Below are positions 11,763 to 38,162 of a DNA stretch of 64,000 nt, piece by piece (the stretch's first letter is position 1; every line of letters begins with the position of its first letter). The stretch spans positions 2,124-66,123 of the forward strand of contig CAYZYH010000004.1 of the NCBI GenBank assembly GCA_964481235.1. The letters are read 5' to 3'. The position numbers and the translations under genes are program-made. The stretch is from an uncultured Candidatus Saccharibacteria bacterium. GTDB taxonomy: Bacteria > Patescibacteriota > Saccharimonadia > CAILAD01 > BJGX01. The notes beneath the pieces are model-generated. The model saw nothing but the letters and a program-made list of their open reading frames with translations, had not been told where the DNA came from and made no database searches.

Positions 11763-11975
11763 ATGTATAGTAATAGTATGACACAACCAGGTACAGTCGA
11801 AAAGAAGAAGCCTAGATTACTTACCCTTAAGCAAGCAAGTGAAATGCTCAATTGTCATCCAAACACTTTGCGTGCCTGGGATGCAAAAGGCTATCTTGTA
11901 GCCGTTCGCTTTGGCACACGCAAGGACAGGCGTTATAAACGAGAAGACATTACTAAGCTGCTGGAAAAGAGATGA
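11763..11975 (+). CDS. Excisionase-family (MerR-like) helix-turn-helix DNA-binding protein, candidate recombination directionality factor
   Basis: …LLTLKQASEMLNCHPNTLRAWDAKGYLVAVRFGTRKDRRYKREDI… is an excisionase-family HTH signature. 70 aa. Confidence 0.55.
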   Translation: MYSNSMTQPGTVEKKKPRLLTLKQASEMLNCHPNTLRAWDAKGYLVAVRFGTRKDRRYKREDITKLLEKR

Positions 11976-12011
11976 AAGCATTTTTAGCTTAGTAACTTAT
12001 CTGATACTTAT

Positions 12012-12833: not shown

Positions 12834-13180
12834 CAGCAACCACTCTGAAAGTGGCTGTATTCTTTAGTATGAGTATATGCTTATTGCTACTCACTTACGT
12901 TTCGATTATTCCTCATAACAAGAATTATGTTGCAAACGCTGGGGCAAATCGTTCGCAGACTAGCTGTGATAATTGTACAGGCCATGCCCAACAAACCGTT
13001 CTGTATACCTTCAACCAAACAAAGCGTGTCGTGCGGTTGCAACCATTGCTACCGCCAATCCCATATTGGTTGCAAGCTCAATTGCCACTTTGGCTTTTAT
13101 ATGTGTTTCCGTTTTTAGCTATTGTTGCGATTGGCTATAGCCAAACCAGAATACTACTCAGTGTTCAGCTTAGATATTGA
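12821..13180 (+). CDS. Hypothetical membrane protein (119 aa)
   Basis: ORF with an N-terminal TM helix and Cys-rich segment. Overlaps the previous gene by 13 nt. Confidence 0.3.
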   Translation: MRRLTATTLKVAVFFSMSICLLLLTYVSIIPHNKNYVANAGANRSQTSCDNCTGHAQQTVLYTFNQTKRVVRLQPLLPPIPYWLQAQLPLWLLYVFPFLAIVAIGYSQTRILLSVQLRY

Positions 13181-13212
13181 AATCCCCATAGTTCACTTTT
13201 TAGATTAACTAA

Positions 13213-19028: not shown

Positions 19029-20196
19029 TCCTGTAAAAATAGACGGTGTGAGCAACGATAGGTCATCTAAAGATGCCCCCAAAGTTACTGTAGAAAAAAA
19101 ACCGGCTGAAGATGTAGAGAAAAAAACTAAATCCAAACCGCTTACCAAGCACGCTGTTAGTAGAGATGCTCGAGAGTATTTTACTGAGACATTAAGCATG
19201 CTAATTTCTACCGGTGTGACTGTGGGTCTCTCACTTGAAATACTCAGTAAAGAAGCACCTACCAAAAAAGTTAAAGCTGCAATACTTGCTATGCGTGACA
19301 AAGTTGACGAGGGCGGTACACTTTGGCGGGCTATAGGTGAGTCGGGTATGTTAAATGCCTCTTCAGTTGCGTTAATAAGGGCTGGCGAAGAATCTGGGCG
19401 ACTATCTGAAAACCTAAAGGTTGTTTCTGAGCAAACCCATAGAATTAACATGATCAACTCTAAGGTTCGCTCAGCACTTATTTATCCTACATTTCTTGTG
19501 GTGTTGATGTTAATTGTTGGTAGCGGCATAAGCTTATTTCTGTTACCAAGATTAGCAGAAATATTCGAAGGCTTAGATGTAGAATTAAACTTACTTACAA
19601 AAGTAATGATTGGCTTTGGGTTGTTTTGGTCGCACTGGGGCCTACTATTGTCGGGTATTTTTGTGGTTGCGGTTTTTATTATTGGTATGGGCATCGCTTA
19701 TGTAAAGCCTATCAGAACTCTAGCAGAGAAAGTACTCTATGTTATACCTGGTATAAAAACTCTCATTTATCAGTCCGAAATCTCTAGGTTTGGATTTATA
19801 ATGGGCTCACTATTAGAGGCAGGCCTACCAATTGTAGATGTGCTCGACTCTCTTGTAGATTCTTTTGCTACAGTCAGGTATAGCAATATTGCAAAAATTA
19901 TAAGAACGAACGTAGAAGAAGGTCAGTCTTTGGCGACTACTCTAGAGAAGATTCCAGATAGAAAAGCTTTGCCTGGCCCCATAAGACAGCTTATAGTAAG
20001 TTCTGAACAGTCGGGCAACCTTTCTGATACATTACTTAAAATTAGCAGTACCTATGAAGAAAAGGTTGAGATAACAGCCGAGAACCTTGAAACTGTACTA
20101 GAGCCTATTATCTTAATTGCAATAGCGGTAGGAGTACTCTTTATTGCCTTATCGGTAATATTGCCCATTTATGGCTTGCTCGGAGGAATTAAGTAA
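19009..20196 (+). CDS. pilC: Type IV pilus inner-membrane platform protein (GspF/PilC family)
   Basis: Two T2SS-F repeats and 3 TM segments. Translationally coupled to pilB. Confidence 0.8.
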   Translation: MSPNQNNPVKIDGVSNDRSSKDAPKVTVEKKPAEDVEKKTKSKPLTKHAVSRDAREYFTETLSMLISTGVTVGLSLEILSKEAPTKKVKAAILAMRDKVDEGGTLWRAIGESGMLNASSVALIRAGEESGRLSENLKVVSEQTHRINMINSKVRSALIYPTFLVVLMLIVGSGISLFLLPRLAEIFEGLDVELNLLTKVMIGFGLFWSHWGLLLSGIFVVAVFIIGMGIAYVKPIRTLAEKVLYVIPGIKTLIYQSEISRFGFIMGSLLEAGLPIVDVLDSLVDSFATVRYSNIAKIIRTNVEEGQSLATTLEKIPDRKALPGPIRQLIVSSEQSGNLSDTLLKISSTYEEKVEITAENLETVLEPIILIAIAVGVLFIALSVILPIYGLLGGIK

Positions 20197-20201
20197 TTAA
20201 T

Positions 20202-20657
20202 ATGTTTGTTAAAAAAAAACTTGCACTACACCAGTATGGTTTTACCTTAATTGAGCTCATACTTTCTATTGGAATAATTTCTATTATACTAATGTTAACA
20301 GCACCAGTACTGCAACGCTATGTGTTGCGCAACGACTTAGAAGTTATTAGTAGTATCATTATTCAAGATATGTATCGTGCGCAGAGCCTAGCTAGATCTG
20401 GAGAAAATGATGGTAATTGGGGCGTGCATGTGCAAAATGGCAGTATCACAGTTTTTCAGGGAAATAGTTATGCTACCAGAAACCAATCTAAAGATGAGGT
20501 TTATCCTTTTACATCATCTATTACTTTTTCGGGTCAAACTGAATTTGTTTTCGACAAATTCACCGGCAAGTTATCTATACCTGGTGCTGTTACGGTAGTA
20601 AACAAGGGCGACAACAAGACTATTACGGTAAGCTCAAAGGGAGTAATTGAATATTAG
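20202..20657 (+). CDS. Prepilin-type (pseudopilin) protein
   Basis: Class III signal peptide KLALHQYG|FTLIELILSIGIISIIL with the conserved Glu at +5. Confidence 0.7.
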   Translation: MFVKKKLALHQYGFTLIELILSIGIISIILMLTAPVLQRYVLRNDLEVISSIIIQDMYRAQSLARSGENDGNWGVHVQNGSITVFQGNSYATRNQSKDEVYPFTSSITFSGQTEFVFDKFTGKLSIPGAVTVVNKGDNKTITVSSKGVIEY

Positions 20658-22434
20658 CATGACATCAACAAATCGCACAGCTGCATCAATGCCAACGGGC
20701 TTTAGTTTGATAGAGATTTTATTGGCTGTAGCAATATTTGCATTATTTGGCACTGTTATGCTCAGTGCTTTTATATACGGCCGAGACGGAGTAAGACAAG
20801 CCGGTGAACGTACAAGAGCCACTGAACTCTCTAGTGCTGGTTTAGAAGTGGTTAGAAATATTGCTAATCCCAACTACTCTAATCTATCTAGTTATTCAAA
20901 CGGCACCAACTATTATATTAGTTCAGTAAACAACCAATGGCAGCTAACCACAATTCCTCAACTTGTAGATGGCAAATATACAAGAATAGTTAATTTTAGT
21001 GATGGACCAAATGGCTCACGTAAAGTTACTGTCACAGTGAGTTGGCCACGAACATTAGTGATTAGTTCTTCATTGAGCGTTGTAACATATTTTGCTAACT
21101 GGCGCCAACCAACCTCGGCACCAATCAAAAGTGGGCTTTTTGTCTATGCCGATGGCGGTACCACTACAGATAGGATGGAATATAGACAGCTATTAACAAC
21201 TGGCTCTTGGACTGCCCAGACTGTAATACCAGATGTAAGTACCACCACCAACAATCGAGTGCCACGTTCACTTAAGCTTTACTCGGCACAAACTGGCTCG
21301 GCCAAGATGATGGTCTCTAGGCACTATGATGGCGCCAGGCAATATATGTATGCTACTGCCTGGAACGGTAGTAGTTGGGCAACTCCACAGCTACTCGCCC
21401 AATGGACTTCTAGTAGCGCACTTAATTCTGGTAATTATGGAGGAGATTTTTTAGCCGACGGTTCATTTGTAGCAGTATATTCAGATGGTAGTAATAACCC
21501 TAAGTCTAGATCATTTAATGGCGCAACCTGGGGGCCAGAGGTTGGCTTGGGACAGATTGGCTCTAGCAGTAACTACATAACAGCAATGATGATTAAGGCT
21601 AGACCCGCATCTAATGACATGATGACAGTTTTTCTCACAAACGACTATCAGGTGAATACTAGCTTTTATGCCAATAGTGCCTGGTCTACCTATACCCAAC
21701 ACACCAATAGTTCTGCGGGAAATGGCTCTTTGCTGGTGGACTTTGACTGGAGTAACGTTAATACTAGCCAAGGTACCGTACTATATACTACTTCTAGTAA
21801 CAGTCGTGCTTTGCGTGCTCAAACATTTACTATTAACGGAAGTGGATCTGGTAGTTGGAGTTCTGTTATCACAAGTGGCAACATACCATCGGGGCAATCT
21901 ATCATCTCAATTCGGCAAATTTCGAGGCCAAGCTCTGCCAACGAGTTAGTAGCGTGTGCTAAGAGTGATATCAACCCTGGTTCAATATTTTGTTACGAAA
22001 TTAATCCTGGCGGTGTTGGTTTTGTTACGCCTACAAACAATCTTATTACCAACAACACTGATTACGGCGGGCAAATAACTTTTGATGTTGCTTATAAATA
22101 CGTTAATTCTAACGATGGCGTAATAGCTTACTCCGATAACACTCGAAGCGGTAAATTAAAGATATATAATAGCAGCCTAAACTCATGGGCAACAAGTGCA
22201 ATAGCACTACCGAACGCCAGTGACAATATTGGAAAAACTCGAATAGTAGGCAGACCAAATGCTGACGAAACCATGGTAATGGTGTCTGATGCTTTCCGTA
22301 ATTTATATTCAGTTGTGTTAGATGGAACCACTAATACATTATTTACTACACCATCAGGTAAAGCCTGGACTAATCACTTATCTAGCGGGCCTACAAACGA
22401 CGCTGTATGGTTTGATTTTGCTTGGGATAACTAA
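20647..22434 (+). CDS. Giant pilin-like protein (595 aa) with prepilin N-terminus, candidate pilus tip/adhesin subunit
   Basis: Prepilin leader …MPTG|FSLIEILLAVAIFALFG, then a 560-aa Ser/Thr/Asn/Trp-rich extracellular body. Confidence 0.6.
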   Translation: MNISMTSTNRTAASMPTGFSLIEILLAVAIFALFGTVMLSAFIYGRDGVRQAGERTRATELSSAGLEVVRNIANPNYSNLSSYSNGTNYYISSVNNQWQLTTIPQLVDGKYTRIVNFSDGPNGSRKVTVTVSWPRTLVISSSLSVVTYFANWRQPTSAPIKSGLFVYADGGTTTDRMEYRQLLTTGSWTAQTVIPDVSTTTNNRVPRSLKLYSAQTGSAKMMVSRHYDGARQYMYATAWNGSSWATPQLLAQWTSSSALNSGNYGGDFLADGSFVAVYSDGSNNPKSRSFNGATWGPEVGLGQIGSSSNYITAMMIKARPASNDMMTVFLTNDYQVNTSFYANSAWSTYTQHTNSSAGNGSLLVDFDWSNVNTSQGTVLYTTSSNSRALRAQTFTINGSGSGSWSSVITSGNIPSGQSIISIRQISRPSSANELVACAKSDINPGSIFCYEINPGGVGFVTPTNNLITNNTDYGGQITFDVAYKYVNSNDGVIAYSDNTRSGKLKIYNSSLNSWATSAIALPNASDNIGKTRIVGRPNADETMVMVSDAFRNLYSVVLDGTTNTLFTTPSGKAWTNHLSSGPTNDAVWFDFAWDN

Positions 22435-22446
22435 GGGCAATTAATT

Positions 22447-22974
22447 ATGAAAAACATTCACTATAACAATCAGACGGGCTACACCATAATAGAAATGCTT
22501 CTATATATTGCGGTATTTTCACTGATTATTGGCTCAATACTCGCTGTGGCCATCTCAATTACTAATCAACGTATTCAAAACCAAGTCAATCAAGAAGTTG
22601 ACGCTCAAGGACGTCTAGTGATGTCTAGTATCACCCAGAGCCTTCGTAATGCTAGTACTATAAACACTCCTTCGGTAGGAAATTCATCAGCGAGTTTGTC
22701 GCTAAATACTACTACAGCCGCAAATAATCCGACAGTATATGATAGCGTGATCGACCAAAATGTAAACAAGGTGCGCATCAAGGTGGGTAGTGCAAGCGCT
22801 GAATTCTTAACTAGCTCTAGGGTGAGTGTTAGTAACTTGAGCTTCACCAATAGAGCTATCTCTGGCGGTAGAGACTCAATAGAGATAAGTTTTACTCTCA
22901 ATTACTATAATCCTAGTAATAAATCTACATTACAGTATCAGAAAAATTTTTATGGAGTATCAACACTAAGATGA
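22447..22974 (+). CDS. Prepilin-type minor pilin
   Basis: …QTG|YTIIEMLLYIAVFSLIIGSILAV prepilin N-terminus. Confidence 0.65.
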   Translation: MKNIHYNNQTGYTIIEMLLYIAVFSLIIGSILAVAISITNQRIQNQVNQEVDAQGRLVMSSITQSLRNASTINTPSVGNSSASLSLNTTTAANNPTVYDSVIDQNVNKVRIKVGSASAEFLTSSRVSVSNLSFTNRAISGGRDSIEISFTLNYYNPSNKSTLQYQKNFYGVSTLR

Positions 22975-23396
22975 ATACACTATATACAAATCAACAATCA
23001 GGCTATATTACTCTAATAACAGTAATTGCCATAGCTGCAATTGGCTCACTTGTGGGCTTGCTACTGCTTTTTTCTGGCGTAACATCTAGCAAAACTAGCC
23101 TGAGTATTCAGCAATCTGCTCAAGCAAAGGCCGGAGCTGACGGTTGTGCAGAACTTGCCTTAGCTGCAATACAGGCAAACATTGTGCTTACTACACCGTC
23201 TAGTGCCAACTACACAATAGATGCTACAAACAAGACCACCTGCACCTACACCATCACCGGTACTAGCCCCAATTATGTGATAGATGCCGTAGGTGTTGCC
23301 GACGCTAGCGGCAAAAACATCAAAAAACGCGCCAATATTACATTAAATAGGGTTGGGCCAACTCTAAATATCTACAGTTGGCAAGAAATTCCTTGA
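22971..23396 (+). CDS. Pilin-like minor subunit (PilX-like), putative
   Basis: …QSG|YITLITVIAIAAIGSLVGLLLLF hydrophobic N-terminal helix. Overlaps the upstream gene by 4 nt. Confidence 0.5.
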   Translation: MNTLYTNQQSGYITLITVIAIAAIGSLVGLLLLFSGVTSSKTSLSIQQSAQAKAGADGCAELALAAIQANIVLTTPSSANYTIDATNKTTCTYTITGTSPNYVIDAVGVADASGKNIKKRANITLNRVGPTLNIYSWQEIP

Positions 23397-23419
23397 CAAA
23401 AAATCTATAAAAAAGCCTA

Positions 23420-23448
23420 TTGCAAAATAAGCATAAGTACTTTAATAT
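23420..23448 (+). promoter_or_regulatory. Sigma-70-like promoter for pilA (ttgcaa-17 nt-taatat)
   Basis: Near-consensus -35/-10 with 17-nt spacer. About 40 nt upstream of a strong RBS (aaagaaagagg) and the pilA ATG. Confidence 0.5.
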
Positions 23449-23489
23449 GATAGTAAGTAAAAATTACTAAAGAAAGAGGTTAAAAAAAG

Positions 23490-23948
23490 ATGTTCAAATT
23501 ATTAAAAAGTAAAAAAGGATTTACCTTGATTGAAGTTTTGCTAGTTGTTGCAATTATCGCAATTCTTGCCGGTATTGTTATACTAGCGGTTAACCCTGCC
23601 AAGCAGTTGGCCGATACTCGTAACGCCCAGCGTAGAGCCGATGTAAATACTATTATTAATGCAGCTTATCAGTACTCTATTGATAACAATGGTAACTTAC
23701 CATCAAGCATTCTGGTAGCTGGTACAGCCCCAGCGAACGATATTTGTGTAACTGGCGGAACTTGCACTGGCCTAACCGACCTGAGTGTTCTTACAGCAAA
23801 TGGTAAATATTTAGTATCTATACCAAAAGATCCGAGCACTGCTACAGCTAATGACACAAAATATACTATTGTAAAAGATGCTAACAATAGACTAGTTGTT
23901 TCTGCTCCAGACGCAGAACAAGGTGCCACAATTTCAGTAACTCGTTAG
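23490..23948 (+). CDS. pilA: Type IV major pilin (PilA-like)
   Basis: KKG|FTLIEVLLVVAIIAILAGIVILAVNP… is a classic T4a pilin N-terminus. 152 aa. Own promoter and strong terminator. Confidence 0.8.
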   Translation: MFKLLKSKKGFTLIEVLLVVAIIAILAGIVILAVNPAKQLADTRNAQRRADVNTIINAAYQYSIDNNGNLPSSILVAGTAPANDICVTGGTCTGLTDLSVLTANGKYLVSIPKDPSTATANDTKYTIVKDANNRLVVSAPDAEQGATISVTR

Positions 23949-23971
23949 TTATTCAGTATCCAACTACCAAC

Positions 23972-24000
23972 AAAAGAGCCCCTCTAAGGGGCTCTTTTGT
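23972..24000 (+). terminator. Intrinsic terminator after pilA (aaagagcccct-cta-aggggctcttt + T)
   Basis: Perfect 11-bp GC-rich stem with a U-tract. Confidence 0.7.
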
Positions 24001-27975: not shown

Positions 27976-28566
27976 ATGACTACGCAAATACCCCAAGAAC
28001 AACCTGATAATTTTGTACCGCTAGTTGCCAAAGCAAGAAGTGGTGATGAAGCAGCTTTTGAGCAATTGTATGAAGAGTATTTTTTACCTATTTATAGATA
28101 TATTCTTATTAGGGTGGGCGACAGTGAAGAGACCGACGACCTAACTCAGCAGGTGTTTATAAAGTTTTACAGAAACTTACATAATTGGCAAGACAAAGGC
28201 TATCAGCCATCTGCCTACATCTTTAGTATTGCCCGAAGCGTAATTGCTGACTTCTATCGCAGTAAGGGCAGAAAAGCTGTAAAGATACAAAACTCCGAGG
28301 AAGTACTCTTGCTTCTTGAAGATAAGTCACAAAACCCCCAGAATGACGTTATAAATACCGAAGAAATAAAACAACTTTATCGTAATTTAAAAAAATTACC
28401 CAATAACTACCAAGAAGCCCTAGTTCTTCGTTATATGGAGAATTTATCTAGTGCAGAGATAGCTATGATAATAGGAAAAAGCGATGTAGCCACCCGTAAG
28501 TTGCTATCTAGAGCTACAATGGCGCTATCAGAGGTTTCAAAACAGGAAGATAGAAAAAATGAATAA
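27976..28566 (+). CDS. ECF-subfamily RNA polymerase sigma-70 factor
   Basis: Region 2 (…YRYILIRVGDSEETDDLTQQVFIKFYRNLHNW…) and region 4 HTH (…ALVLRYMENLSSAEIAMIIGKSDVATRKLLSRA). Confidence 0.8.
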   Translation: MTTQIPQEQPDNFVPLVAKARSGDEAAFEQLYEEYFLPIYRYILIRVGDSEETDDLTQQVFIKFYRNLHNWQDKGYQPSAYIFSIARSVIADFYRSKGRKAVKIQNSEEVLLLLEDKSQNPQNDVINTEEIKQLYRNLKKLPNNYQEALVLRYMENLSSAEIAMIIGKSDVATRKLLSRATMALSEVSKQEDRKNE

Positions 28567-29026
28567 TAATAAGAGCAACAACAGCCCCGAAGAGTATGCT
28601 AAAAAACTAAATGAGTTTAATGGTTTTTCGATTAACAAGAGACACCTTCTCAATAATACTCTTCAAAGAATAGATAGGGAAAAAGATACTCCAAGAAGTG
28701 TAGTACCAGAAACAAAAAACAACCCTATGCTCAACCAACTAAGAGCATACATTATACCTGTGGCCACTTTTATGTTGGTGGTTATATTTAGCGGAGTATT
28801 TTTCTTTAGGAATAGTAACCCCAACATCAATAGCAATATTACTAACAAACTGAGTCAATCTGCTCCAAATGGTACAATCGAGAACACTTTTAATTCTGTT
28901 AGTGCTGATTTGGCCGATGAGAACAGTATTAATGAGCAAGCAATGAATCAAGGAGAGAATGTTGTGAAAGAGATGTCTAACGACATCAAGCAATTAGGAG
29001 ATATTAGTAATGACCCAAGTCTGTAA
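28559..29026 (+). CDS. Putative anti-sigma factor (single-pass membrane protein)
   Basis: Overlaps the ECF sigma stop by 8 nt. One central TM helix. Typical anti-sigma topology. Confidence 0.45.
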   Translation: MNNNKSNNSPEEYAKKLNEFNGFSINKRHLLNNTLQRIDREKDTPRSVVPETKNNPMLNQLRAYIIPVATFMLVVIFSGVFFFRNSNPNINSNITNKLSQSAPNGTIENTFNSVSADLADENSINEQAMNQGENVVKEMSNDIKQLGDISNDPSL

Positions 29027-29796: not shown

Positions 29797-31833
29797 TTAG
29801 AACACTTCTTTACGATTTTGCCACCGAGGCTTCAATACTTCGTAGTTTATCATTGAGTAAACTAGTAGATAAAACGAACATAGGCAACCTATAGGGTAGA
29901 GTAATGTAGATACAATACTCTGACGAGAGATTATAGTAATAATTAATCTGTTTATATAACTAAGTCCAATCGCTAGGGCTAAGAACCATAGACCTAGGTA
30001 AATGTTTAATACTAATAAGTAACTTATTAGTAGAGTTGGAAAGACCAAGACGAACAATCCAAACAAAACTAAGGCGATAGTTAAGGGCATGGAAAAGTGT
30101 AGTGCTGGGTAAAAACGCCTTAAGTTTTGCGCAACAATAAGTCTCAAACTAGCATGGTTTTGACTCATCGCCATGTCTGACCCTAGATAGAAGCCAGTTT
30201 TTAAACCCCTTGTCTTAGCAGCGGCTGCAAGGTCGAAATCTTCCAAGGGGCTTTTTCTTACAAGCTCAAAACCACCAAGGGCTAATACGCTAGATCTTAC
30301 GAAAGCAGTTATATTACTACTAGCATTAACTGATCTGGGGTGAGCCTTTGCCAAATATGCAGAAGGGTATAGACCAAGCATAAAGTAATGATTTTGACTT
30401 AGTATAATTTGTTGAGCAAAACTCTTATTTTGGTCTGATGGTAATATTGAAACTAAGCTTAGCTTTTCTTGCTCAATAAGACTAGCCATTACTGAGAGAG
30501 CGTTAGGTAATAGAATAGTATCAGCACTAAGAAGTAAAACTATTTCACCCGTCGACTTTTCTAGCAACTGCTGAGATACCCAGGAGTTAATGGTCCAGTT
30601 GGGTTTTAGTGGTTTTGTTTCTATAATCTTTAGCCTAGGGTCTTGAAAACCCTTGGCTATACTTAGAGTGTTATCTTGCGAGCCCAGATCGGTAAAAAGT
30701 ATTTCGAACTGAGGGTATTGCTGGCCTAAAAGTGAGAGGAGCGTAGAAGATATATTGTCACCTTGATTATAGGCGTGCATAATTATACTAATTTTTGGCC
30801 AATCAGTTAGTCGTTTTGTCTTTGGTCTAGCGAAAGCTCTTAGGTTATATATCGTTAGACCAAGTTGTATCAAGAAAAATACCAATAGAAAAAAACCAGT
30901 CAATGCAACGAAATATTCTCTAACACCGAACGGATCAAAAGCAAACAACAATATTTGAGTAATAAAAAACCCTACTATCATATTCAACCACATAAAGTTT
31001 TGCCAACCCCTATGAAACTGTGTAGATCTTGCATCGGATTTGTATTTAATAAAAAAACTAGCGTTTAAGACATACATTCCTAAAAACACACTAGCAAGTA
31101 AGCCAAGAGGAAAGTATGACACCGCAATAAACACACAGCACAATAGGTAAAGAGAAATGACAAATATATTGGTACGCCTGGCGCCCATCACTGTAGCTAT
31201 AGATTTAATATTAGCGGCTCTATCTGGCTTAATGTCTTGTATTGCACCAAAAGCTTGACTTGCCATACCCCATGCCATAAAGGCAATTATGGCTGGCCAG
31301 TAGTAGTTATTACTTTGTGCATATGCAAGCCCAAACACAAATGGTAGAACAAAGTGCAACGCTGAGTTGATTGAATCTAAAAAAGGAACTTCTTTAAAAC
31401 GAAGTGGTTTGGCACTATAGCTGAAAGCAAAGAATATAATAAGTACAAATAGTATTTTTGATATGGCAGTTCCAGTAGCTAAAAAATACAATGCAAAAGG
31501 TAAATTCAATAGTGCAATTGCTATCCATAAACTCTGGTGTTTTTGCTTAAGAAGTAAACCCCCTTCGATGGAATTTTTTCGAGGATTTTTAATATCTGAC
31601 TCGTAATCATATATATCGTTTACGCCATAAAGCATTAAATTGTAAGAAAACAAGAAATATACAAACCCAATTAGGCCAGGAAAACTTATGCCTTGAGAAG
31701 CAAGCAAGTAGCCCACCAAAAAAGGAAAAGCTGTGTTTATCCAGCTTACTGGGCGACTGGTCGCCAAAACTTCTTTAATTGTGAGTTTGCTACTTTTTTT
31801 AGACATATTATTTGTTACTTTTAAAATATTCAA
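29797..31833 (-). CDS. Fusion protein: UbiA-family prenyltransferase (lycopene elongase CrtEb-like) + GT2 glycosyltransferase (CrtX-like)
   Basis: N-terminal polytopic domain has both UbiA Asp-rich motifs (NDIYDYESD = NDxxDxxxD; DIKPD = DxxxD). C-terminal domain is GT2 (…ISIIMHAYNQGDNISSTLLSL…, D.D motif …LLLSADTILLPNAL…), followed by additional TM helices. Confidence 0.7.
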   Translation of the reverse strand: MNILKVTNNMSKKSSKLTIKEVLATSRPVSWINTAFPFLVGYLLASQGISFPGLIGFVYFLFSYNLMLYGVNDIYDYESDIKNPRKNSIEGGLLLKQKHQSLWIAIALLNLPFALYFLATGTAISKILFVLIIFFAFSYSAKPLRFKEVPFLDSINSALHFVLPFVFGLAYAQSNNYYWPAIIAFMAWGMASQAFGAIQDIKPDRAANIKSIATVMGARRTNIFVISLYLLCCVFIAVSYFPLGLLASVFLGMYVLNASFFIKYKSDARSTQFHRGWQNFMWLNMIVGFFITQILLFAFDPFGVREYFVALTGFFLLVFFLIQLGLTIYNLRAFARPKTKRLTDWPKISIIMHAYNQGDNISSTLLSLLGQQYPQFEILFTDLGSQDNTLSIAKGFQDPRLKIIETKPLKPNWTINSWVSQQLLEKSTGEIVLLLSADTILLPNALSVMASLIEQEKLSLVSILPSDQNKSFAQQIILSQNHYFMLGLYPSAYLAKAHPRSVNASSNITAFVRSSVLALGGFELVRKSPLEDFDLAAAAKTRGLKTGFYLGSDMAMSQNHASLRLIVAQNLRRFYPALHFSMPLTIALVLFGLFVLVFPTLLISYLLVLNIYLGLWFLALAIGLSYINRLIITIISRQSIVSTLLYPIGCLCSFYLLVYSMINYEVLKPRWQNRKEVF

Positions 31834-32101
31834 AGAGAGCAGGTACCATTAGTATTACAGCAACTAGGTAGCCAAAATCTTCTATAGGTATATTGCCAAC
31901 TTTATAACCCAATATAGAACTATTATTATACATCACAATCGGCAGAGTGGTGAGGTAGTTGTCGAATACAAGCATAGCAATGAGCAGGATTAGCCCGACC
32001 ACCATCAAAGCCTTGGGTTTTGGTGGGGTAATGCGCAAACGTACAAGTATTAATATTGATACCACCACTAAGCTGGTTACTAGTACTAAATAGCTAGTCA
32101 T
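31808..32101 (-). CDS. Lycopene cyclase domain protein (CrtYf/CrtYd-like half)
   Basis: 97-aa, 3-TM protein with the lycopene-cyclase-domain motif …IPIEDFGYLVAVILM…. Confidence 0.65.
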   Translation of the reverse strand: MTSYLVLVTSLVVVSILILVRLRITPPKPKALMVVGLILLIAMLVFDNYLTTLPIVMYNNSSILGYKVGNIPIEDFGYLVAVILMVPALFEYFKSNK

Positions 32102-32517
32102 GATCTTTTATTCCTAGACCCAACATTCCGTGTAGGGTGGCTCAGAGTTAGCTTGTCATTTTTTCGCTTATTATTATCAACTTTTCTAAATACCTCTAGC
32201 CTTCCAATTAGTTGATACAAAATCAGCGTCACATAGCATAGCATAAACAAAAAGACCACTTCTTCTATCGGTATATTGGGCGAAATAATATTTAATCTCA
32301 CTACGTAGTCTTGGTTTGTAGAAAATATTTTATTAATTACCCCAGCAACATCAAATATCAGTAGTAGTAGTATTGTATAGCCAACTGCTTTTGTGCTTGC
32401 AATTTTGTCATACCAAAACGCTAGTCTTAATCGCCAGTCGGCCAAAAGTAAACCAGCAATACTAAAAACTAGTACAAAAATATAGAAGTAATGTGTGTGC
32501 ACAAGTTGCATAATCAT
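32098..32517 (-). CDS. Lycopene cyclase domain protein (CrtYe/CrtYc-like half)
   Basis: 3-TM protein with …NIPIEEVVFLFMLCYVTLILY (PxEE motif). Adjacent and overlapping its partner half, as in heterodimeric actinobacterial cyclases. Confidence 0.65.
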   Translation of the reverse strand: MIMQLVHTHYFYIFVLVFSIAGLLLADWRLRLAFWYDKIASTKAVGYTILLLLIFDVAGVINKIFSTNQDYVVRLNIISPNIPIEEVVFLFMLCYVTLILYQLIGRLEVFRKVDNNKRKNDKLTLSHPTRNVGSRNKRS

Positions 32518-32573
32518 CTACCTATTATACTCCATATAAAAAACCCTCTCGTGTTAAGAGAGGGTATTTAAGT

Positions 32574-33095
32574 CTAAAGTTTTAGATGCAGCATAACTAT
32601 GAGCCAGTTGAGCATGGTATAGGCGTGCTGGGGGAACATTCTGTAGCCTCCAAGATATTGGTTGCCATCAGTCTTTGTGATATCTGCATAAGTACCGGTT
32701 TCGTCATATGTAAAGTCAATCCGTATCTTTCTACAATTGTTGCGAGGCGGCTTGTCAAATAGACTATCAATATAAACTTCTAGTTTAGTGTCTGGTAGTT
32801 TTTTGGCTCGTACTACACCGAAGTAGTCAGTAAAGTCTGGTGCAGGCTCAAATACTACAAGGCCTGGCGCCCAGTAAACAAGATAACCTAAAAATGTTTG
32901 CACATCATCGACCCGTCCAAACAGCACCTGTCGCGACAGTCGAGCTGGGTTTGCTTTATTGGTGAGCATTAATTCTACGCTTTTAATGGTGTTTATGCGC
33001 CCTCGTTTTGTTTTCAACCACCCAAGTTTACGCTCGCGCTCTATCACTTCTTCAATATTTGCAATCAAATCTTTTGTGGGGGTGATGGCACTCAT
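32574..33095 (-). CDS. Hypothetical protein (173 aa) embedded in the carotenoid cluster
   Basis: Intact ORF between the cyclase genes and crtI. No motif recognised. Confidence 0.35.
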   Translation of the reverse strand: MSAITPTKDLIANIEEVIERERKLGWLKTKRGRINTIKSVELMLTNKANPARLSRQVLFGRVDDVQTFLGYLVYWAPGLVVFEPAPDFTDYFGVVRAKKLPDTKLEVYIDSLFDKPPRNNCRKIRIDFTYDETGTYADITKTDGNQYLGGYRMFPQHAYTMLNWLIVMLHLKL

Positions 33096-33225
33096 AAATT
33101 TATTCCCATCTAGTAGTAGGTGCGGAGATTACTCAGATATTATAGTAATTAATCTCAAATTTGTAAATATTACTCAAAAACACTACCAATCAAAAAAGCT
33201 CTCTAAATATGCTATTATTTAAGTC

Positions 33226-34719
33226 GTGAAAAAGAAAAAAACAGTAATAATTATAGGTGCAGGTATTGGCGGTATGTGTACAGCGGCTAGGCTACTTAAA
33301 GAGGGCTACAAAGTTTCTATTTATGAAAAAGAGCCGTTAGTTGGTGGGAGAGCCAATCGAATCAAACAAGACAGCTACACTTTTGATACTGGTCCAACAC
33401 TATTAATGATGACCGACGTTCTTTACGACACTTTTGCATATTGTGGCAAAGACTTTGATGACTATATTGAGTTAATCCAGCTAGAGCCCAATTATCAAGT
33501 AGCCTTTGCTGACAGCTCACGTATTACCGTTAGCAGTAACCTCCCAAAGTTTGCTAGCGAGCTTGCCAAATTCGACCCTAAGGCCCCTGAGCAATTTTAT
33601 AGATTTTTTGCCGATGTTGCCGAAATATATAGGTTGTCGCGCGGTGGATTTATAGATAAAAACTTTGATAGTATTACAGATTTTATTAACTTTCGCTCTG
33701 GACTTAAATTATTACAAAAACGAGGACTTATAAGTCTTTGGAAGTTTGTAAGTCATTATTTTAATGACGATAGACTACGCCAACTATTTAGTTTTCAGAG
33801 TATGTACCTGGGTGTGAGTCCATATGAGGCACCGGCAGTTTACAGCGTACTTAGCTATATGGAGACTGGGCTAGGTATTTGGTACCCAAAAGGGGGGATG
33901 TATAGTTTGAGCCAGGCTCTAGAGAGGCTCGTAAAAGATATGGGTGGCGAAGTATATACCAATAGTCCTATTTCACAGATCAATATTGAAAATAGTATTG
34001 TCAAAGGGGTTGTTGTCGGTGGAGAAACTATAGAAGCGGATTTGGTAGTATGTAATGCCGATCTAATATATGCTTACAAAAATCTGCTACCCCCATCTAT
34101 AAAACTAAAAAGTCTGGGACGCAAAGCCGAAGATCTCAAGCAAGCCAGTTCGGCACTACTATTTTATTGGGGTGTTAATAACAAACTCGATGGCATGCTA
34201 CACCACAATGTTTATTTATGTAGTGATTTTAAAAACAACCTCGAAGAAATATTAAAAAATCATAAACTACCTAGCGATCCATCGTTTTACACCTATATAC
34301 CTACTAAAACCGATCCAACTCTTGCACCAAGAAACAGAAGTGTTATGTACATTCTTGTGCCAGTTCCAAATTTGCAAGCAGAAAACGATTGGGGTAAGGG
34401 CGTTAGTAAGATTCGTGCTCAGGTTTTGAAGCGCCTAAAAAATGAATATGGCAAAGACATAGAAAAAGATATTGAAACAGAAAAAATATTTTCACCGCAA
34501 GATTTTGAAACCAAATTTAATCTAACTGCTGGCTCGGCTTTTGGCCTAACTCATCACTTATTCCAGTCTGGTTATTTTAGGCCTCACAATATTGAACGTA
34601 GTGTAGAAGGTCTATATTTTGTGGGAGCGAGTACTTATCCGGGCGGAGGTATTCCTATGGTAACATTATCTGCAAAGCTTGTAGTCGAGCGAATTCTCGG
34701 GGATAATAAAGTGAATTAA
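33226..34719 (+). CDS. crtI: Phytoene desaturase (CrtI family)
   Basis: FAD-binding GxGxxG (VIIIGAGIGGMCTAARL…EKEPLVGGRA). …LRQLFSFQSMYLGVSPYEAP…GIWYPKGG… and C-terminal …FRPHN…LYFVGASTYPGGGIPMV… match CrtI along the full length. Confidence 0.9.
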   Translation: MKKKKTVIIIGAGIGGMCTAARLLKEGYKVSIYEKEPLVGGRANRIKQDSYTFDTGPTLLMMTDVLYDTFAYCGKDFDDYIELIQLEPNYQVAFADSSRITVSSNLPKFASELAKFDPKAPEQFYRFFADVAEIYRLSRGGFIDKNFDSITDFINFRSGLKLLQKRGLISLWKFVSHYFNDDRLRQLFSFQSMYLGVSPYEAPAVYSVLSYMETGLGIWYPKGGMYSLSQALERLVKDMGGEVYTNSPISQINIENSIVKGVVVGGETIEADLVVCNADLIYAYKNLLPPSIKLKSLGRKAEDLKQASSALLFYWGVNNKLDGMLHHNVYLCSDFKNNLEEILKNHKLPSDPSFYTYIPTKTDPTLAPRNRSVMYILVPVPNLQAENDWGKGVSKIRAQVLKRLKNEYGKDIEKDIETEKIFSPQDFETKFNLTAGSAFGLTHHLFQSGYFRPHNIERSVEGLYFVGASTYPGGGIPMVTLSAKLVVERILGDNKVN

Positions 34720-34722
34720 CCT

Positions 34723-35799
34723 ATGACAGAAACAAATCTTAAATCATACGTAGCAAAGGTAAAACAAGAAATTGATGCTCTGTTGAGCGATTTTTTGAAT
34801 CAAAAAATTGTTGACGCATCTAGGATTGGTAGTGAATACCAAAAGCTACTTAATGTTATTGCAAAACAAACTTTGCGTGGTGGCAAAAGACTCCGGCCAA
34901 GTTTGGCCATGCTGGGGTATGAAATTGCAGGTGGCAAAGACAGAGATAAGATGTTAAAAGCTGCAATGTCGTTAGAAATATTCCACAACTATTTACTTAT
35001 GCATGACGATATTATGGATCACGACGACAAACGTCACGGAGGTCTTAATGTTACTGGGGTTTATAAAAGAAGGTATTCCCGAACTCTAAATAGTTTAGAT
35101 GTTCAGCATGTGGCGAACTCTATAGCGATGTTGGCGGGGGATATATGTTGTGGTTTAAGCTATGAATCTTTGATAGCGTCAGGCATGAACCCTCAACAAT
35201 TAGTATCGGCAATATCAAGACTAAACACCGCAACATTCGAGGTAGCTGCTGGCCAACATCTTGACCTAATTGGTTCGGTAGGTAAGTCCCTTACTATAAG
35301 TGATATTAAGAAGATAAACCAATATAAAACAGCCGACTATACAGTAATAATGCCTTTGCAGTTTGGTGCAATACTTGCAGGTGGACCAGCGACATTACAT
35401 ACTCTGTTCGCGAAGTTTGGCAACAATGCCGGAGTGGCTTTTCAGTTGAGTGATGATGATCTAGGGGTTTTTGGTAGCCCAAAGCTTACTGGTAAACCAG
35501 TGGGGAGCGATATAAAAGAAGGAAAGCAAACAGTACTTATGCACAATGGTATTGAATTAACAAAAGGAACTCAAAGAGATTTTATTAAAAGGTGTATTAA
35601 CAATCCCAAATTAACTGCTAAAGATGTAAAAAAGGTACAAAATATACTAATTAAATCTGGAGCTAGACAGAAGACGGTATTGCTGGCCCAAGATTTAGCA
35701 AATGCCGCAATAGATATAACAAATGAAATACCCAACTCTAGCAATAGAACCCATCTATTAGCTGAATTTGCGCAATATTGCGTAGCTAGGAGTAGTTAA
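34723..35799 (+). CDS. crtE: Polyprenyl diphosphate synthase (GGPP synthase, CrtE/IdsA-like)
   Basis: FARM (LLMHDDIMDHDDKRHG) and SARM (FQLSDDDLGVFG) Asp-rich motifs. Confidence 0.8.
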   Translation: MTETNLKSYVAKVKQEIDALLSDFLNQKIVDASRIGSEYQKLLNVIAKQTLRGGKRLRPSLAMLGYEIAGGKDRDKMLKAAMSLEIFHNYLLMHDDIMDHDDKRHGGLNVTGVYKRRYSRTLNSLDVQHVANSIAMLAGDICCGLSYESLIASGMNPQQLVSAISRLNTATFEVAAGQHLDLIGSVGKSLTISDIKKINQYKTADYTVIMPLQFGAILAGGPATLHTLFAKFGNNAGVAFQLSDDDLGVFGSPKLTGKPVGSDIKEGKQTVLMHNGIELTKGTQRDFIKRCINNPKLTAKDVKKVQNILIKSGARQKTVLLAQDLANAAIDITNEIPNSSNRTHLLAEFAQYCVARSS

Positions 35800-35802
35800 G
35801 TA

Positions 35803-36639
35803 GTGAGTCAAAACCAGTACAGCGAAGTTTCGCAAGCAATTAACGCCATTATTACAAAGCAGTACTCTACATCATTTTCTGTGGCAATTAGGTTACTAGA
35901 CAAATCTATAAGAACAGACATATACAACATATACGGCTATGTTAGAGTTGCCGATGAACTAGTAGATACACTTAGACCAAAAGATAGCTTACGCATGCTA
36001 AAAGATTTTAACATTGAGACAACCCAGGCAATAAAGGTTGGTGTTAGCTTAAATCCAGTAATCCACGCCTTCGCTCAAACAGTTATCAAATACCAAATAG
36101 ATTATAGTTTGATACAAGCTTTTATAAATAGTATGACTATGGATATATCTAAAAAATCATATAACAAAAAACAATACAAAGACTATATATATGGCTCTGC
36201 CGAAGTTGTTGGCTTGATGTGCCTAATGGTTTTTCTTGGTGGTAACAAGACTAAATATAAAAAACTTACCCTAGGTGCGAAAGCACTAGGTTCGGCTTTT
36301 CAAAAAGTTAACTTTTTACGTGATCTAAATATAGATAACCAAGAGCTGGGTAGGATCTACTTTCCGAATATTGATATAGAAAATTTTCAAAGCGATCAAA
36401 AAAAGCAAATTGAGCAAGAAATACTTGCTGATTTTAAGATTGCTCAGTCAACTATCTATCAACTACCTTATTCGTCTAGATACGGAGTACTACTAGCTTA
36501 TTGGTACTATCGTTTACTGCTTAGAAAAATACAAAAAACTAGTGCTCAGGTGCTAAAAGAGAAACGAGTAAGGGTTTCTGATATTACCAAGTTACTACTC
36601 TATATTGTTGTGTTTGGTGAAAAACTACTTCATATATAA
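35803..36639 (+). CDS. crtB: Phytoene synthase (CrtB, squalene/phytoene synthase family)
   Basis: GTG start. …YGYVRVADELVDT…, …YGSAEVVGLMCLMVFLGG… and …AFQKVNFLRDLNID… are trans-IPPS head-to-head motifs. Confidence 0.8.
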   Translation: MSQNQYSEVSQAINAIITKQYSTSFSVAIRLLDKSIRTDIYNIYGYVRVADELVDTLRPKDSLRMLKDFNIETTQAIKVGVSLNPVIHAFAQTVIKYQIDYSLIQAFINSMTMDISKKSYNKKQYKDYIYGSAEVVGLMCLMVFLGGNKTKYKKLTLGAKALGSAFQKVNFLRDLNIDNQELGRIYFPNIDIENFQSDQKKQIEQEILADFKIAQSTIYQLPYSSRYGVLLAYWYYRLLLRKIQKTSAQVLKEKRVRVSDITKLLLYIVVFGEKLLHI

Positions 36640-36683: not shown

Positions 36684-38162
36684 ATGAAAAAACCCCCACC
36701 GAAACACATAATTATTGATGGTATTGTCTATGACTCCAACACCGGGGAAGTTGTCGGGCGTTCAAGGGGTGATTCCAAGTTGCTGCCAAAACAAAAACAC
36801 CCTGAGGTGCTAGACCTTCGTACCCCAGAAAGCATTGTAAATCAACCACAGGCTGCCATAAGTAAGAGGCAGGCCCAGCTTTCACTTACAAACCTTCAAA
36901 ACGAGCAAGAATTTTACGATAATAAAAACGCTAAATTAGAAAAATTAAAGGCTACAAAAGACAAACTAAAGAAAAAAATAAAGCTCCACACTAAGCGCAT
37001 AAAAAAATCACTAATATCTCCGGCCACCAAGTCATCTGCCAATAGTTCTGCTAAAAAAACTCCTAAACTGACCTTACAACAAGATTATTTAGAGTTTGTT
37101 TTGGTAAAGTCTATTTGGCCTCCTCCTTTATTTAGTTTGTGGCAAATGAGTCTGGTAAGAACTATTGTCAGTCCGCAGACCTGGCTTCTACTTAGCTTAC
37201 CGGTAATACTTTTGCAACTAAGAATACTACAAAATTTCACTACAAATGAAGTGCTGCAAAAAGCTAAGGGCGTGGTTAGTCCAGACCACTTTTCGGCTCT
37301 AGCATGGTCTGTAGGAGTGACTCTAACGCTATTCTTTTTAGGAGTAATAATTCGTTCAATAATATCAAATGCTGGTATAGCGATAAGGCTCAGACAGATA
37401 GATAATCGAACTTTACACCTTACAACAGCTTTACGCTCGGCAGTTCATTCTATGCTACGACAAGCTATTAACTATCTTTTACACCTGGTTATTATTTGTT
37501 TGGTGACTGCTTTTACTGTATGGGTTGCTATAAATATATTCAACTCGAATAATCATTGGCTAAGTACCAGTAAGTACCAATTAATAGTGTTTCTAGCAGT
37601 AATATGGTTGGTGGTTTTGGTTTTGCTTTATAGTAAACACTGGTTACAGGTAGGGCTTTTGGCGCGTAGTAGTAAGTCTAGTCATCTACAGCTACAAAGT
37701 CTCAAGCTGCTACAAATTAGCCCTTTAAGAAATTTTACCACTGGGTTTTTGGCTATTTGTGGTATTTTCTTGGGTTATAGCTCCATTCTATTGATAGATT
37801 GGCAAATTACTGATTTTTTCATTACTCATGTAAATAGTCCTACAATTTTGGTATTAATTGTTGTAGCAATTTTTACAGTAGTCATACTAACAACCATGCA
37901 GTATTACCAACAAAACACCTGGGCTAGGCAGTACTATTTTGTCGCCTCAAAGGCCATCAATAACCAAGAGTTACTTTATATGGAGCGCGAGAAACCCGCT
38001 AGCCTTTGGCCTTTATTTGTAGCTATTGGTTTTGCTGGGTTTATGGTGGGTCTTTATGCGATAATTGTTATTTGGCAATCCGCTCAAATTAAAGGCGTGT
38101 TGGCAAACTTTCACGCTGAAGTACCAAGTCAAATTAATTTCACTTTACCGGTTAAAGAGTGA
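36684..38162 (+). CDS. Large polytopic membrane protein (492 aa), unknown
   Basis: Lys-rich soluble N-terminus, then about 9 TM helices. Confidence 0.4.
   Translation: MKKPPPKHIIIDGIVYDSNTGEVVGRSRGDSKLLPKQKHPEVLDLRTPESIVNQPQAAISKRQAQLSLTNLQNEQEFYDNKNAKLEKLKATKDKLKKKIKLHTKRIKKSLISPATKSSANSSAKKTPKLTLQQDYLEFVLVKSIWPPPLFSLWQMSLVRTIVSPQTWLLLSLPVILLQLRILQNFTTNEVLQKAKGVVSPDHFSALAWSVGVTLTLFFLGVIIRSIISNAGIAIRLRQIDNRTLHLTTALRSAVHSMLRQAINYLLHLVIICLVTAFTVWVAINIFNSNNHWLSTSKYQLIVFLAVIWLVVLVLLYSKHWLQVGLLARSSKSSHLQLQSLKLLQISPLRNFTTGFLAICGIFLGYSSILLIDWQITDFFITHVNSPTILVLIVVAIFTVVILTTMQYYQQNTWARQYYFVASKAINNQELLYMEREKPASLWPLFVAIGFAGFMVGLYAIIVIWQSAQIKGVLANFHAEVPSQINFTLPVKE

Follow-up and report, generated by a model that had tools for sequence, protein, structure and literature searches.

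A conserved Saccharibacteria gene cluster with a fused elongase and glycosyltransferase, probably for a glycosylated C45/C50 carotenoid

A 64,000-nt stretch of an uncultured Candidatus Saccharibacteria genome (contig CAYZYH010000004.1; hereafter the window) carries, at 29797-36639, a C50-type set of carotenoid genes in which a predicted lycopene elongase is fused to a glycosyltransferase. We consider it likely that this is a chromosomal, vertically inherited pathway by which a Saccharibacteria lineage supplies its cell membrane with a glycosylated carotenoid elongated by C5 units (C45/C50). The nature of the product is indicated by the co-occurrence of a protein that passes the elongase equivalog, a coupled cyclase and a fused glycosyltransferase of family GT2, which together point to a cyclic, glycosylated compound.

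A sequence-only reading of this DNA had called six pathway genes, and all six are intact where it placed them, as judged from the translated open reading frames (ORFs) and domain profiles, with complete catalytic motifs throughout. They form two tightly packed divergent operons: two cyclase genes followed by the fusion on the minus strand, and crtI, a prenyl diphosphate synthase gene (IDS) and crtB, separated from one another by 3-nt gaps, on the plus strand. The features are as follows, TM standing for transmembrane.

29797..31833 (29797..31806 from the ATG), minus strand: UbiA::GT2 fusion; UbiA PF01040, 99 bits, aa 35-282; GT2 PF00535, 60 bits, aa 349-473
30937..31806, minus strand: UbiA half, aa 1-290 of the 669-aa fusion; predicted elongase of CrtEb/CrtE2/LbtC type
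29797..30936, minus strand: C-terminal part of the fusion; extra TM helix aa 296-324, GT-A fold GT2 domain aa ~339-570, C-terminal TM bundle aa 573-657
31808..32101, minus strand: Yf/Yh/LbtB-type cyclase half (cycF), 97 aa; PF18916, 57.5 bits; PIED motif
32098..32517, minus strand: Ye/LbtA-type cyclase half (cycE), 139 aa; TIGR03462, 47.6 bits (cutoff 39.4); PIEE motif
33226..34719, plus strand: CrtI-family phytoene desaturase, 497 aa; TIGR02734, 483 bits (cutoff 238)
34723..35799, plus strand: short-chain trans-prenyl diphosphate synthase, 358 aa; PF00348, 164 bits
35803..36639, plus strand: CrtB phytoene synthase, 278 aa; PF00494, 143 bits (cutoff 26)

Core genes flank the cluster, with rpoA-L17-L13-S9 at the left end and secE-nusG-L11-L1-L10-L12 directly to the right. 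The GC content at third codon positions (GC3) runs from 0.29 to 0.38 in the cluster, in keeping with the spread among the remaining genes (0.337 ± 0.036), and the same locus, with a fusion 95% identical, is found in a GTDB species-representative metagenome-assembled genome (MAG), 'uncultured Candidatus Saccharibacteria bacterium SRP342105_co3_110'. The cluster is therefore neither a binning artefact nor compositionally foreign, and chance is excluded by the E-values together with at least 10 other genomes in which the complete arrangement is retained.

The enzymes of the pathway

The fusion more likely starts at the ATG at 31806, 1 nt past the upstream stop codon, which yields the 669 aa of public gene calls; an exact look-up of the version with a TTG start gave no record, the 669-aa form being the recorded one. 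Its UbiA half had been described as a prenyltransferase with both Asp-rich motifs and the look of a lycopene elongase, and this description holds. NDIYDYESD, QDIKPDR and SRPVSWIN are common to the window protein and the reference enzymes (NDxxDYESD, QDxxxDR, SRPxSWxN), for which we used the DNA in the supplement of Li, Furubayashi et al. 2019 (PMC6393565): Micrococcus luteus CrtE2/Yg/Yh, Corynebacterium glutamicum and C. efficiens CrtEb/Ye/Yf, and Dietzia LbtA/LbtBC. Over its full length (aa 9-289) the UbiA half is 39-44% identical to the four characterised elongases (LbtC 43.7%, C. glutamicum CrtEb 41.8%, CrtE2 39.4%, C. efficiens CrtEb 39.1%; BLASTP E-values of 3e-56 to 3e-76). It also passes NF009608, the sole NCBIfam equivalog passed by all three elongases tested, with 317 bits where 217 are required (C. 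glutamicum CrtEb 490, CrtE2 449, LbtC 418), and it stays below the sister equivalogs NF010119 (159 of 248 bits) and NF009516 (153 of 205 bits), both of which the three references fail as well. A sequence search of the PDB with the UbiA half returned no match. Most likely, then, this half is a lycopene elongase of the CrtEb/CrtE2/LbtC type, and C5 addition is its predicted activity.

The sister equivalog NF010119 is matched at 434 bits by the second UbiA of Kocuria oxytropis (L089). This UbiA adjoins a gene for a CrtD-like desaturase, for which reason the model seems to represent a different, Lye-like elongase. The two genes (L089 8857..11219, minus strand) lie directly downstream of the CrtEb-type cluster of this species, and pink K. 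oxytropis may thus carry cyclic-C50 and bacterioruberin-type modules side by side. An 835-aa ORF at this locus, considered as a Lye-CrtD fusion, was rejected as a high-GC frame artefact that holds the desaturase alone.

The two cyclase proteins had been read as adjacent lycopene-cyclase-domain proteins of about 100 aa with PxE(E/D) motifs, and they can now be assigned to one subunit type each. The 139-aa half has no Pfam match at E<=0.01 and no BLASTP match to CrtYg at E<=1; it aligns with CrtYe and LbtA at E-values of 5e-15 to 9e-12 and has in common with the references the Ye/LbtA-type motifs D(H/W)R..LAF, WD and PxEE. The 97-aa half aligns with LbtB, CrtYf and CrtYh (E-values of 2e-9 to 6e-8) and carries the Yf/Yh/LbtB-type motifs FDN and P(I/L/V)ED. 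The two genes overlap as ATGA, as crtYe and crtYf of C. glutamicum do (4 nt; PMC6393565), and the stop of the second sits 1 nt before the fusion ATG. The order of Ye-type half, Yf-type half and elongase is that of crtYe-crtYf-crtEb and lbtA-lbtBC. With one of each subunit next to an elongase, the pair is predicted to form a cyclase of the heterodimeric C50 type.

CrtI, the prenyl synthase and CrtB are all confirmed by their profiles and motifs, which are intact. A GTG start is needed for CrtI to take in its dinucleotide-binding motif GAGIGG (aa 11-16), and the protein falls below the cutoffs of CrtID (403 of 640 bits) and CrtD (281 bits). It is 63-91% identical in window-type loci and 27-33% identical to actinobacterial CrtI. 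The prenyl synthase has DDIMD as its first motif and DDDLG as its second, which we take to be the DDxxG variant of actinobacterial-type enzymes. Its best NCBIfam matches, GGPP_syn and IDS models of the actinobacterial type, all fall short of their equivalog cutoffs; the enzyme is probably a geranylgeranyl diphosphate (GGPP) synthase. CrtB has the Asp-rich motifs DELVD and DLNID and misses the CrtB-specific NCBIfam equivalog cutoffs, so that its assignment to phytoene instead of squalene is drawn from context.

The C-terminal part of the fusion follows the UbiA helices without a break in an AlphaFold2 (AF2) model built on 14 homologues (pLDDT 86.7, pTM 0.83), in which helices at aa 10-290 lead into the extra TM helix, the GT-A domain and the helical bundle. 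The model is consistent with one continuous membrane protein carrying a GT-A domain. The best Foldseek matches are the membrane GT2 enzymes PcManGT, hyaluronan and cellulose synthases, and ArnC, along with soluble GT-A proteins. The nearest named NCBIfam models, both below cutoff, are HpnB (98 of 379 bits) and CruG (61 of 600 bits), which are terpenoid-lipid glycosyltransferases and the closest named families to this half. D373, D378 and D429 are nearly invariant, the window protein has the ED motif, and the fusions of Chloroflexota retain the canonical DAD and REDxxL motifs. A role of the GT2 half in glycosylating a hydroxylated carotenoid is a reasonable prediction. We found no earlier description of this elongase-glycosyltransferase architecture in the literature.

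A possible seventh component, missed by the sequence-only reading, lies 13 kb upstream of the cluster.

16317..17156, plus strand: CruF-family (Caroten_synth) membrane protein, 279 aa; PF04240, 100.6 bits (cutoff 25)

The gene is flanked by a HAD-like (haloacid dehalogenase-like) ORF with bacA at one end and by type IV pilus genes at the other, and its product reaches the cutoff of none of the three CruF equivalogs (80 of 400, 65 of 155 and 50 of 300 bits). Although unlinked, it may be the carotenoid hydratase of the pathway, judging by its family. It has more than 70 homologue clusters in Patescibacteria (76 matches). For seven of these homologues the longest contig has the same size, to the base pair, as that of a homologue of the fusion with intact motifs, and none of the 76 has a longest contig of the size of three crt-less contigs (214, 109 and 52 kb); these identical contig sizes hint faintly that the gene travels with the pathway. 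No CruF-like gene lies within 8-10 kb of the fusion in other loci.

Distribution and origin of the locus

A scan of species-representative genomes gave at least 573 confirmed elongase relatives, and architectures were mapped on the 80 best loci, which are cited here by their L numbers. Full-length homologues of the fusion fall into more than 90 clusters (40-78% identity), assigned to Candidatus Saccharibacteria wherever they are named. In the window's architecture (type A), crtB<-IDS<-crtI is divergent from cycE->cycF->UbiA::GT2; at least 10 further Saccharibacteria or Patescibacteria genomes (L006, L011-L019) have it, with fusions 46-95% identical to that of the window and, wherever the flanks are covered, a position beside secE-nusG. 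The sister genome L018 has 87-99% protein identity to the window genes (78% for cycE139). A second architecture (type B), with colinear IDS-crtB-crtI-cycE-cycF-UbiA and no GT2, occurs in at least about 15 other low-GC Saccharibacteria MAGs; its gene order is that of actinobacterial loci (Georgenia, Glutamicibacter, Microbacterium, Leifsonia, Kocuria and others), and its elongases pass NF009608.

Type B loci: L022, L025, L026, L028, L029, L034, L038, L040, L046, L050, L051, L058, L059, L062, L086

A third architecture, cyc-cyc-UbiA::GT2-crtI-crtB, is found in Chloroflexota (L008, L020, L024, L027, L037, L048, L052). The colinear actinobacterial order is not that of the window, where crtI-IDS-crtB diverges from cyc-cyc-UbiA::GT2. 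The pathway had been called unexpected in a reduced, host-dependent genome; this no longer stands, given the more than 90 homologue clusters of the fusion labelled Saccharibacteria, the second architecture and two papers, discussed below, that mention such genes. Two further contigs are probably mis-binned: L071, labelled Chloroflexi, has a Saccharibacteria type B cluster at a Saccharibacteria-like GC content (0.47), and in L067, labelled Proteobacteria (GC 0.73), the elongase nests among Actinobacteria.

Seven Saccharibacteria-like homologues of the fusion are without the UbiA Asp motifs. At three mapped loci, where the fusion keeps its slot beside nusG, crtI, crtB and both cyclase genes are gone from the slot, and the motifs are destroyed in L007 (10001..11986) and L010 (10001..12034) and mildly altered in L009 (10001..12094; N->G, Q->A); L010 retains the prenyl synthase. 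Conversely, all 11 motif-intact type A loci keep crtI, crtB and both cyclases. As motif decay coincides with crt loss, UbiA activity appears tied to the crt genes. The GT2 half, the membrane neighbour downstream of crtB and a nearby sigma-factor unit, all kept where carotenogenesis is absent, thus serve carotenoids either not at all or not exclusively. In these relatives the GT2 half looks conserved, and it may have taken on a second or new role.

The sequence-only reading had called the cluster actinobacterial in style and raised transfer from host to epibiont. The trees place it elsewhere. Actinobacteria and all characterised elongases are monophyletic in the UbiA tree (100% bootstrap support) to the exclusion of the window's clade, type A forms a clade at 99-100%, the Chloroflexota fusions form another at 100%, and the two fusion clades join at 94% in one UbiA tree and at <70% in a larger one. 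In the CrtI tree, type A and Chloroflexota form one group (100%), separate from a group of Actinobacteria and type B (98%). Actinobacteria alone are a clade in the CrtI tree (96%) and the IDS tree (100%), and the window's genes lie outside both. CrtB of type A groups with that of type B Saccharibacteria (85%), as does the prenyl synthase (73%). Phylogenetically, the window cluster looks like a mosaic of a crtI and UbiA::GT2 module in common with Chloroflexota and a crtB/IDS pair common to Saccharibacteria. Because no gene nests inside the sampled Actinobacteria, transfer from host to epibiont is unsupported for this cluster; the better candidate for exchange with actinobacterial hosts is type B, whose CrtI is sister to the actinobacterial one. 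A compositional sign of transfer was considered and rejected, GC3 being native. The suggestion that any transfer would be old is borne out by this native GC3 and the conserved chromosomal slot.

Predicted pathway, alternatives and meaning

The pathway that we propose is a prediction at every chemical step, as well as in the chain length made by the prenyl synthase, the ring type, the sugar and its acceptor; it is drawn from observed gene identities, family memberships, motifs, operon packing, synteny and phylogenetic placement. The prenyl synthase would convert isopentenyl and dimethylallyl diphosphate (IPP/DMAPP), from a source not encoded within the window, to GGPP; CrtB would join two GGPP to phytoene, which CrtI would desaturate to lycopene. 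The UbiA half would then add C5 units at C-2 and C-2', as CrtEb, CrtE2 and LbtC do, and the heterodimer of the two cyclase halves of about 100 aa would close the elongated ends. The GT2 half, kept at the same membrane site by the extra TM helix, would move a sugar onto a hydroxyl of the product, and hydration of an end that is still acyclic, or of a double bond in a side chain, may fall to the unlinked CruF-family protein.

Several observations weigh against this pathway or parts of it. IPP supply is unexplained by the window, given that no mevalonate (MVA), methylerythritol phosphate (MEP) or idi gene is annotated in its 64 kb and that freshwater classes of the candidate phyla radiation (CPR) except Gracilibacteria, Saccharimonadia included, are reported to encode only C10-C20 isoprenoid steps (Chiriac et al. 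2022, PMC9166423). The cyclase domain models PF18916 and TIGR03462 also cover the C40 beta-cyclases CrtYc/CrtYd, and the CruF-like gene points to a hydration chemistry foreign to the Corynebacterium and Micrococcus pathways. In the GT2 half, the first Asp of the DxD motif is Ser in the window and Ser, Ala or Thr across the Saccharibacteria clade, and the ED motif is variable in some relatives. No GT2 homologue lies within 8 kb of actinobacterial C50 clusters (E<1e-4), which leaves homology to actinobacterial CrtX unsupported, and the persistence of the GT2 half in relatives that lost the crt genes means that it may have another or an additional acceptor. The architecture is known from genes alone in every organism that carries it, and the trees are neighbour-joining trees with 60-100 bootstraps, computed with numpy distances from sequences derived from high-scoring segment pairs.

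Two alternatives concern the product. The cluster could encode a C40 pathway, with a CrtYc/Yd-type cyclase making beta-carotene, for example as retinal precursor for Saccharibacteria rhodopsins, and UbiA::GT2 making some other envelope lipid, prenylated or glycosylated. The Lycopene_cyc family does not split C40 from C50 cyclases, the GT2 half has been kept in L007, L009 and L010, where crt genes are gone, and Saccharimonadia are rich in rhodopsins and heliorhodopsins whose retinal source is unexplained (PMC9166423; bioRxiv 10.1101/2022.02.13.480300). We nevertheless hold a C40 product to be improbable, as the UbiA half passes the CrtEb/CrtE2/LbtC equivalog and has the motifs specific to these enzymes, its motifs decay where crt genes are lost, the fusion gene follows immediately on the cyclase genes in every locus, and the annotation of the window contains neither blh nor a rhodopsin gene. 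The other product would be an acyclic C50 carotenoid of the bacterioruberin type (Lye, CrtD and CruF), for which UbiA would act as elongase and hydratase, CrtI would double as 3,4-desaturase and the CruF-like protein would complete hydration. Here the two conserved cyclase halves, translationally coupled to the elongase, would be needless; UbiA fails both sister equivalogs, including the NF010119 matched by the Kocuria UbiA beside a CrtD-like gene; the single desaturase gene of the window scores under the CrtID and CrtD cutoffs, and the CruF-like protein under all three of its own. The presence of a CruF-family gene that co-occurs on contigs with the fusion, the ranking of bifunctional CrtID (403 bits) and CrtD (281 bits) as next-best models for CrtI, and published matches of lyeJ, crtD and cruF hidden Markov models in Patescibacteria from Lake Baikal, for which bacterioruberin was proposed, including one Saccharibacteria genome in which cruF is distant from lyeJ/crtD (Haro-Moreno et al. 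2023, PMC9948471), argue for such a pathway, and to our mind leave it unlikely. The CruF-family gene would also suit a product with mixed end groups.

The remaining alternatives concern the history and state of the genes. A recent horizontal transfer of the entire cluster out of an actinobacterial host would agree with Actinobacteria being the known hosts of cultured Saccharibacteria and the main holders of CrtEb-type clusters, with the majority of the at least 573 elongase relatives listed; the best NCBIfam matches of the prenyl synthase are of actinobacterial type, and type B clusters have the exact actinobacterial order. It becomes very improbable in view of the sampled Actinobacteria clades that exclude the window's UbiA (100%) and CrtI (96%), the grouping of both with Chloroflexota (94% and 100%), a CrtI only 27-33% identical to that of Actinobacteria, the native GC3, and a slot conserved across Saccharibacteria whose fusions are only 46-50% identical. 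That the cluster is a decaying relic, its genes present and the pigment no longer made, has in its favour the crt loss and degraded UbiA motifs of related lineages, an ORF with a terminator-like hairpin inserted in the divergent promoter region, and the want of an IPP-supply gene in the window. Yet all ORFs are full length with intact catalytic motifs, the identity to L018 given above is accompanied by strong conservation over deeper divergence, and downstream of the inserted ORF the cyclase operon has kept its -10-like box; we give this explanation hardly any weight.

A membrane pigment of the glycosylated C45/C50 kind in Saccharibacteria would thus remain our preferred reading, and it can be extended into a broader scenario that we put forward tentatively and regard as rather doubtful. 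A clade of environmental Saccharibacteria reportedly without a C5 pathway would make glycosylated C50 carotenoids from host isoprenoid diphosphates, the bifunctional fusion channelling a hydroxylated C50 intermediate directly into glycosylation; crtI and UbiA::GT2 would have been exchanged with Chloroflexota and not with actinobacterial hosts; and in crt-less sisters the GT2 domain with its dead UbiA half would have been repurposed, possibly for scavenged host carotenoids or lipids.

Our literature search returned no description of the UbiA::GT2 fusion, of the two Saccharibacteria architectures or of the Chloroflexota link, and nothing on C50 carotenoids in CPR bacteria beyond the Lake Baikal paper. 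A Saccharimonas MAG with crtB, crtE and crtYf has been reported with a 'ubiA' that was read as ubiquinone synthesis (PMC11484240); this 'ubiA' is probably a lycopene elongase. Rhodopsin-bearing Saccharibacteria without blh were described with no mention of crt genes (Jaffe et al. 2022). Two passing annotations, 'ubiA = ubiquinone' and 'bacterioruberin genes', would accordingly be corrected by our reading. CPR bacteria are thought to be nearly devoid of lipid and secondary metabolism and to depend on their hosts for membrane components, and a conserved, intact seven-gene pathway argues for a membrane-protective or membrane-ordering carotenoid of their own in many Saccharibacteria, which points to light- or oxygen-exposed lifestyles and sharpens the question of their IPP source. 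Furthermore, the fusion would be a so far undescribed enzyme architecture for glycosylated C50 carotenoids, of biotechnological interest as strong antioxidants, and the pathway supplies a pigment marker with which environmental Saccharibacteria could be tracked or enriched.

Neighbouring genes and known systems

The surroundings of the pathway genes include one ORF between the divergent operons that the sequence-only reading had not listed, a promoter-like box and two units on either side of the cluster.

32574..33095, minus strand: orphan ORF, 173 aa, between the divergent operons
32524..32529, minus strand: -10-like TATAAT box, 7 nt 5' of the ATG of the cyclase operon
36684..38162, plus strand: multi-TM neighbour, 492 aa, between crtB and secE; no family match
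27976..28566, plus strand: extracytoplasmic function (ECF) sigma factor, Sigma70_r2/r4_2 domains, with an overlapping candidate anti-sigma ORF at 28559..29026

The orphan ORF has no Pfam, NCBIfam or PHROG match and no Foldseek match at E<=0.001 (AF2 pLDDT 68.6). Two homologues are in the database (88% and 58%), and a diverged ORF is present in L011. It is confined to the window's closest subclade (L011 ~640..1160; L018 6711..7232), absent from the other window-type loci, and fast-evolving, with 58% identity where its neighbours have 78-97%. It is inserted in the divergent crtI/cycE promoter region, with a promoter-like site at 33139-33167 and a strong terminator-like hairpin at 32543-32565, and probably does not belong to the core pathway. 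In a comparison at the level of the consensus, all 11 window-type loci (L006, L011-L019 and the window) have a GTATAAT or GTATAC box 7-12 nt 5' of the cycE ATG. The box of the window sits between the hairpin of the orphan ORF and the cycE ATG, for which reason the cyclase operon seems to keep a promoter of its own; its transcript would perhaps be leaderless or have a short leader. A promoter and terminator scan of the cluster showed no enrichment over shuffles (35 versus 29 ± 6).

The 492-aa membrane ORF and the 251-aa and 155-aa ORFs that follow the ECF sigma factor have no family matches. A counterpart of the former, of 400-510 aa, still occupies this slot in genomes from which the crt genes have disappeared, and it is probably not pathway-specific. 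The ECF sigma factor with two to three unassigned ORFs also flanks the fusion in L004, L007 and L009, crt-less genomes included, and does not do so in L006; a regulatory link of this unit to the fusion is speculative. Both were considered as pathway-specific and rejected, as they persist where crt genes are lost.

Elsewhere in the window, type IV pilus genes at 17256..24000 (plus strand), namely a PilB-like T2SSE ATPase, a PilC-like T2SSF protein and several N_methyl pilins, are as expected of an episymbiotic Saccharibacterium. At 7791..13200, a tRNA-Trp (7791..7867) abuts a 515-aa serine recombinase (7802..9349, minus strand) followed by unassigned ORFs. An identical 273-aa protein (12012..12833) occurs on 23 contigs, including one of Saccharibacteria L004 (GCA_964570715.1), where two recombinases flank similar genes, and one public assembly of the window organism breaks exactly at the tRNA-Trp. 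This region looks like an integrative element common to Saccharibacteria species. The Rfam model Hammerhead_3 matches at 63371..63426 (minus strand; 48.6 bits against a gathering threshold of 48.5), within a stretch of higher GC (0.44-0.47, ~59-64 kb) that holds small ORFs without family matches and an AAA ATPase, and is possibly a mobile or phage-derived island.

Among characterised systems, the decaprenoxanthin cluster of C. glutamicum, crtE-cg0722-crtB-crtI-crtYe-crtYf-crtEb (Krubasik 2001; Heider 2012, PMC3598387), covers the same enzyme families in six steps. Its elongase belongs to the same equivalog (41.8% identity), the crtYe-crtYf-crtEb order and the 4-nt cyclase overlap recur in the window, and its natural product is glycosylated too. 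The identification of the cluster with the Micrococcus/Corynebacterium gene set stands for the C50-type enzyme families and falls short in two respects, as the window has its elongase fused to GT2 and an additional CruF-family gene. It also differs from C. glutamicum in its two divergent operons (crtI-IDS-crtB and cyc-cyc-fusion), in a CrtI about 30% identical to the actinobacterial one, in having no adjacent MarR-type CrtR, and in belonging to a CPR bacterium without a visible IPP pathway. In M. luteus, whose crtE2-crtYg-crtYh and crtX lead to sarcinaxanthin glucosides (Netzer 2010, as cited in PMC6393565), an elongase, a two-subunit cyclase and a glycosyltransferase likewise act towards a C50 product according to that citing account, whereas the glycosyltransferase is a separate gene and the elongase comes first in order. 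The closest characterised elongase (43.7%) is that of Dietzia sp. CQ4, where lbtA-lbtBC makes the beta-cyclic C50 carotenoid C.p.450 (Tao 2007; PMC6393565). Dietzia thus provides a precedent for an elongase fused to a pathway partner, with a heterodimeric cyclase directly upstream; its partner is an N-terminal cyclase subunit, whereas that of the window is a C-terminal glycosyltransferase and the cyclase halves are separate genes.

The bacterioruberin pathway of haloarchaea and pink Arthrobacter and Kocuria, Lye(J)-CrtD-CruF (PMC9122864), has in common with the window the predicted C5 elongation of lycopene by a UbiA protein and a CruF-family protein. It differs in that the window has cyclase halves, no separate CrtD and an unlinked CruF-like gene, and in that its UbiA fails both sister equivalogs. 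Cyanobacterial CruF and CruG, which reportedly act in myxol glycoside synthesis (Graham and Bryant 2009), are a pair of PF04240 hydratase and GT2 carotenoid glycosyltransferase, and CruG is the second-best named model for the window's GT2 half. The window proteins score far under the respective cutoffs (80 of 400 and 61 of 600 bits), and the cyanobacterial substrates are said to be monocyclic C40 carotenoids. The Chloroflexota operons, known from MAGs only, differ from the window in their high GC, single colinear operon, lack of an adjacent prenyl synthase and unrelated CrtB (23-26%), but they carry the same UbiA::GT2 fusion, 28-34% identical overall and 42-45% in the UbiA half, and a CrtI that groups with that of the window (100%).

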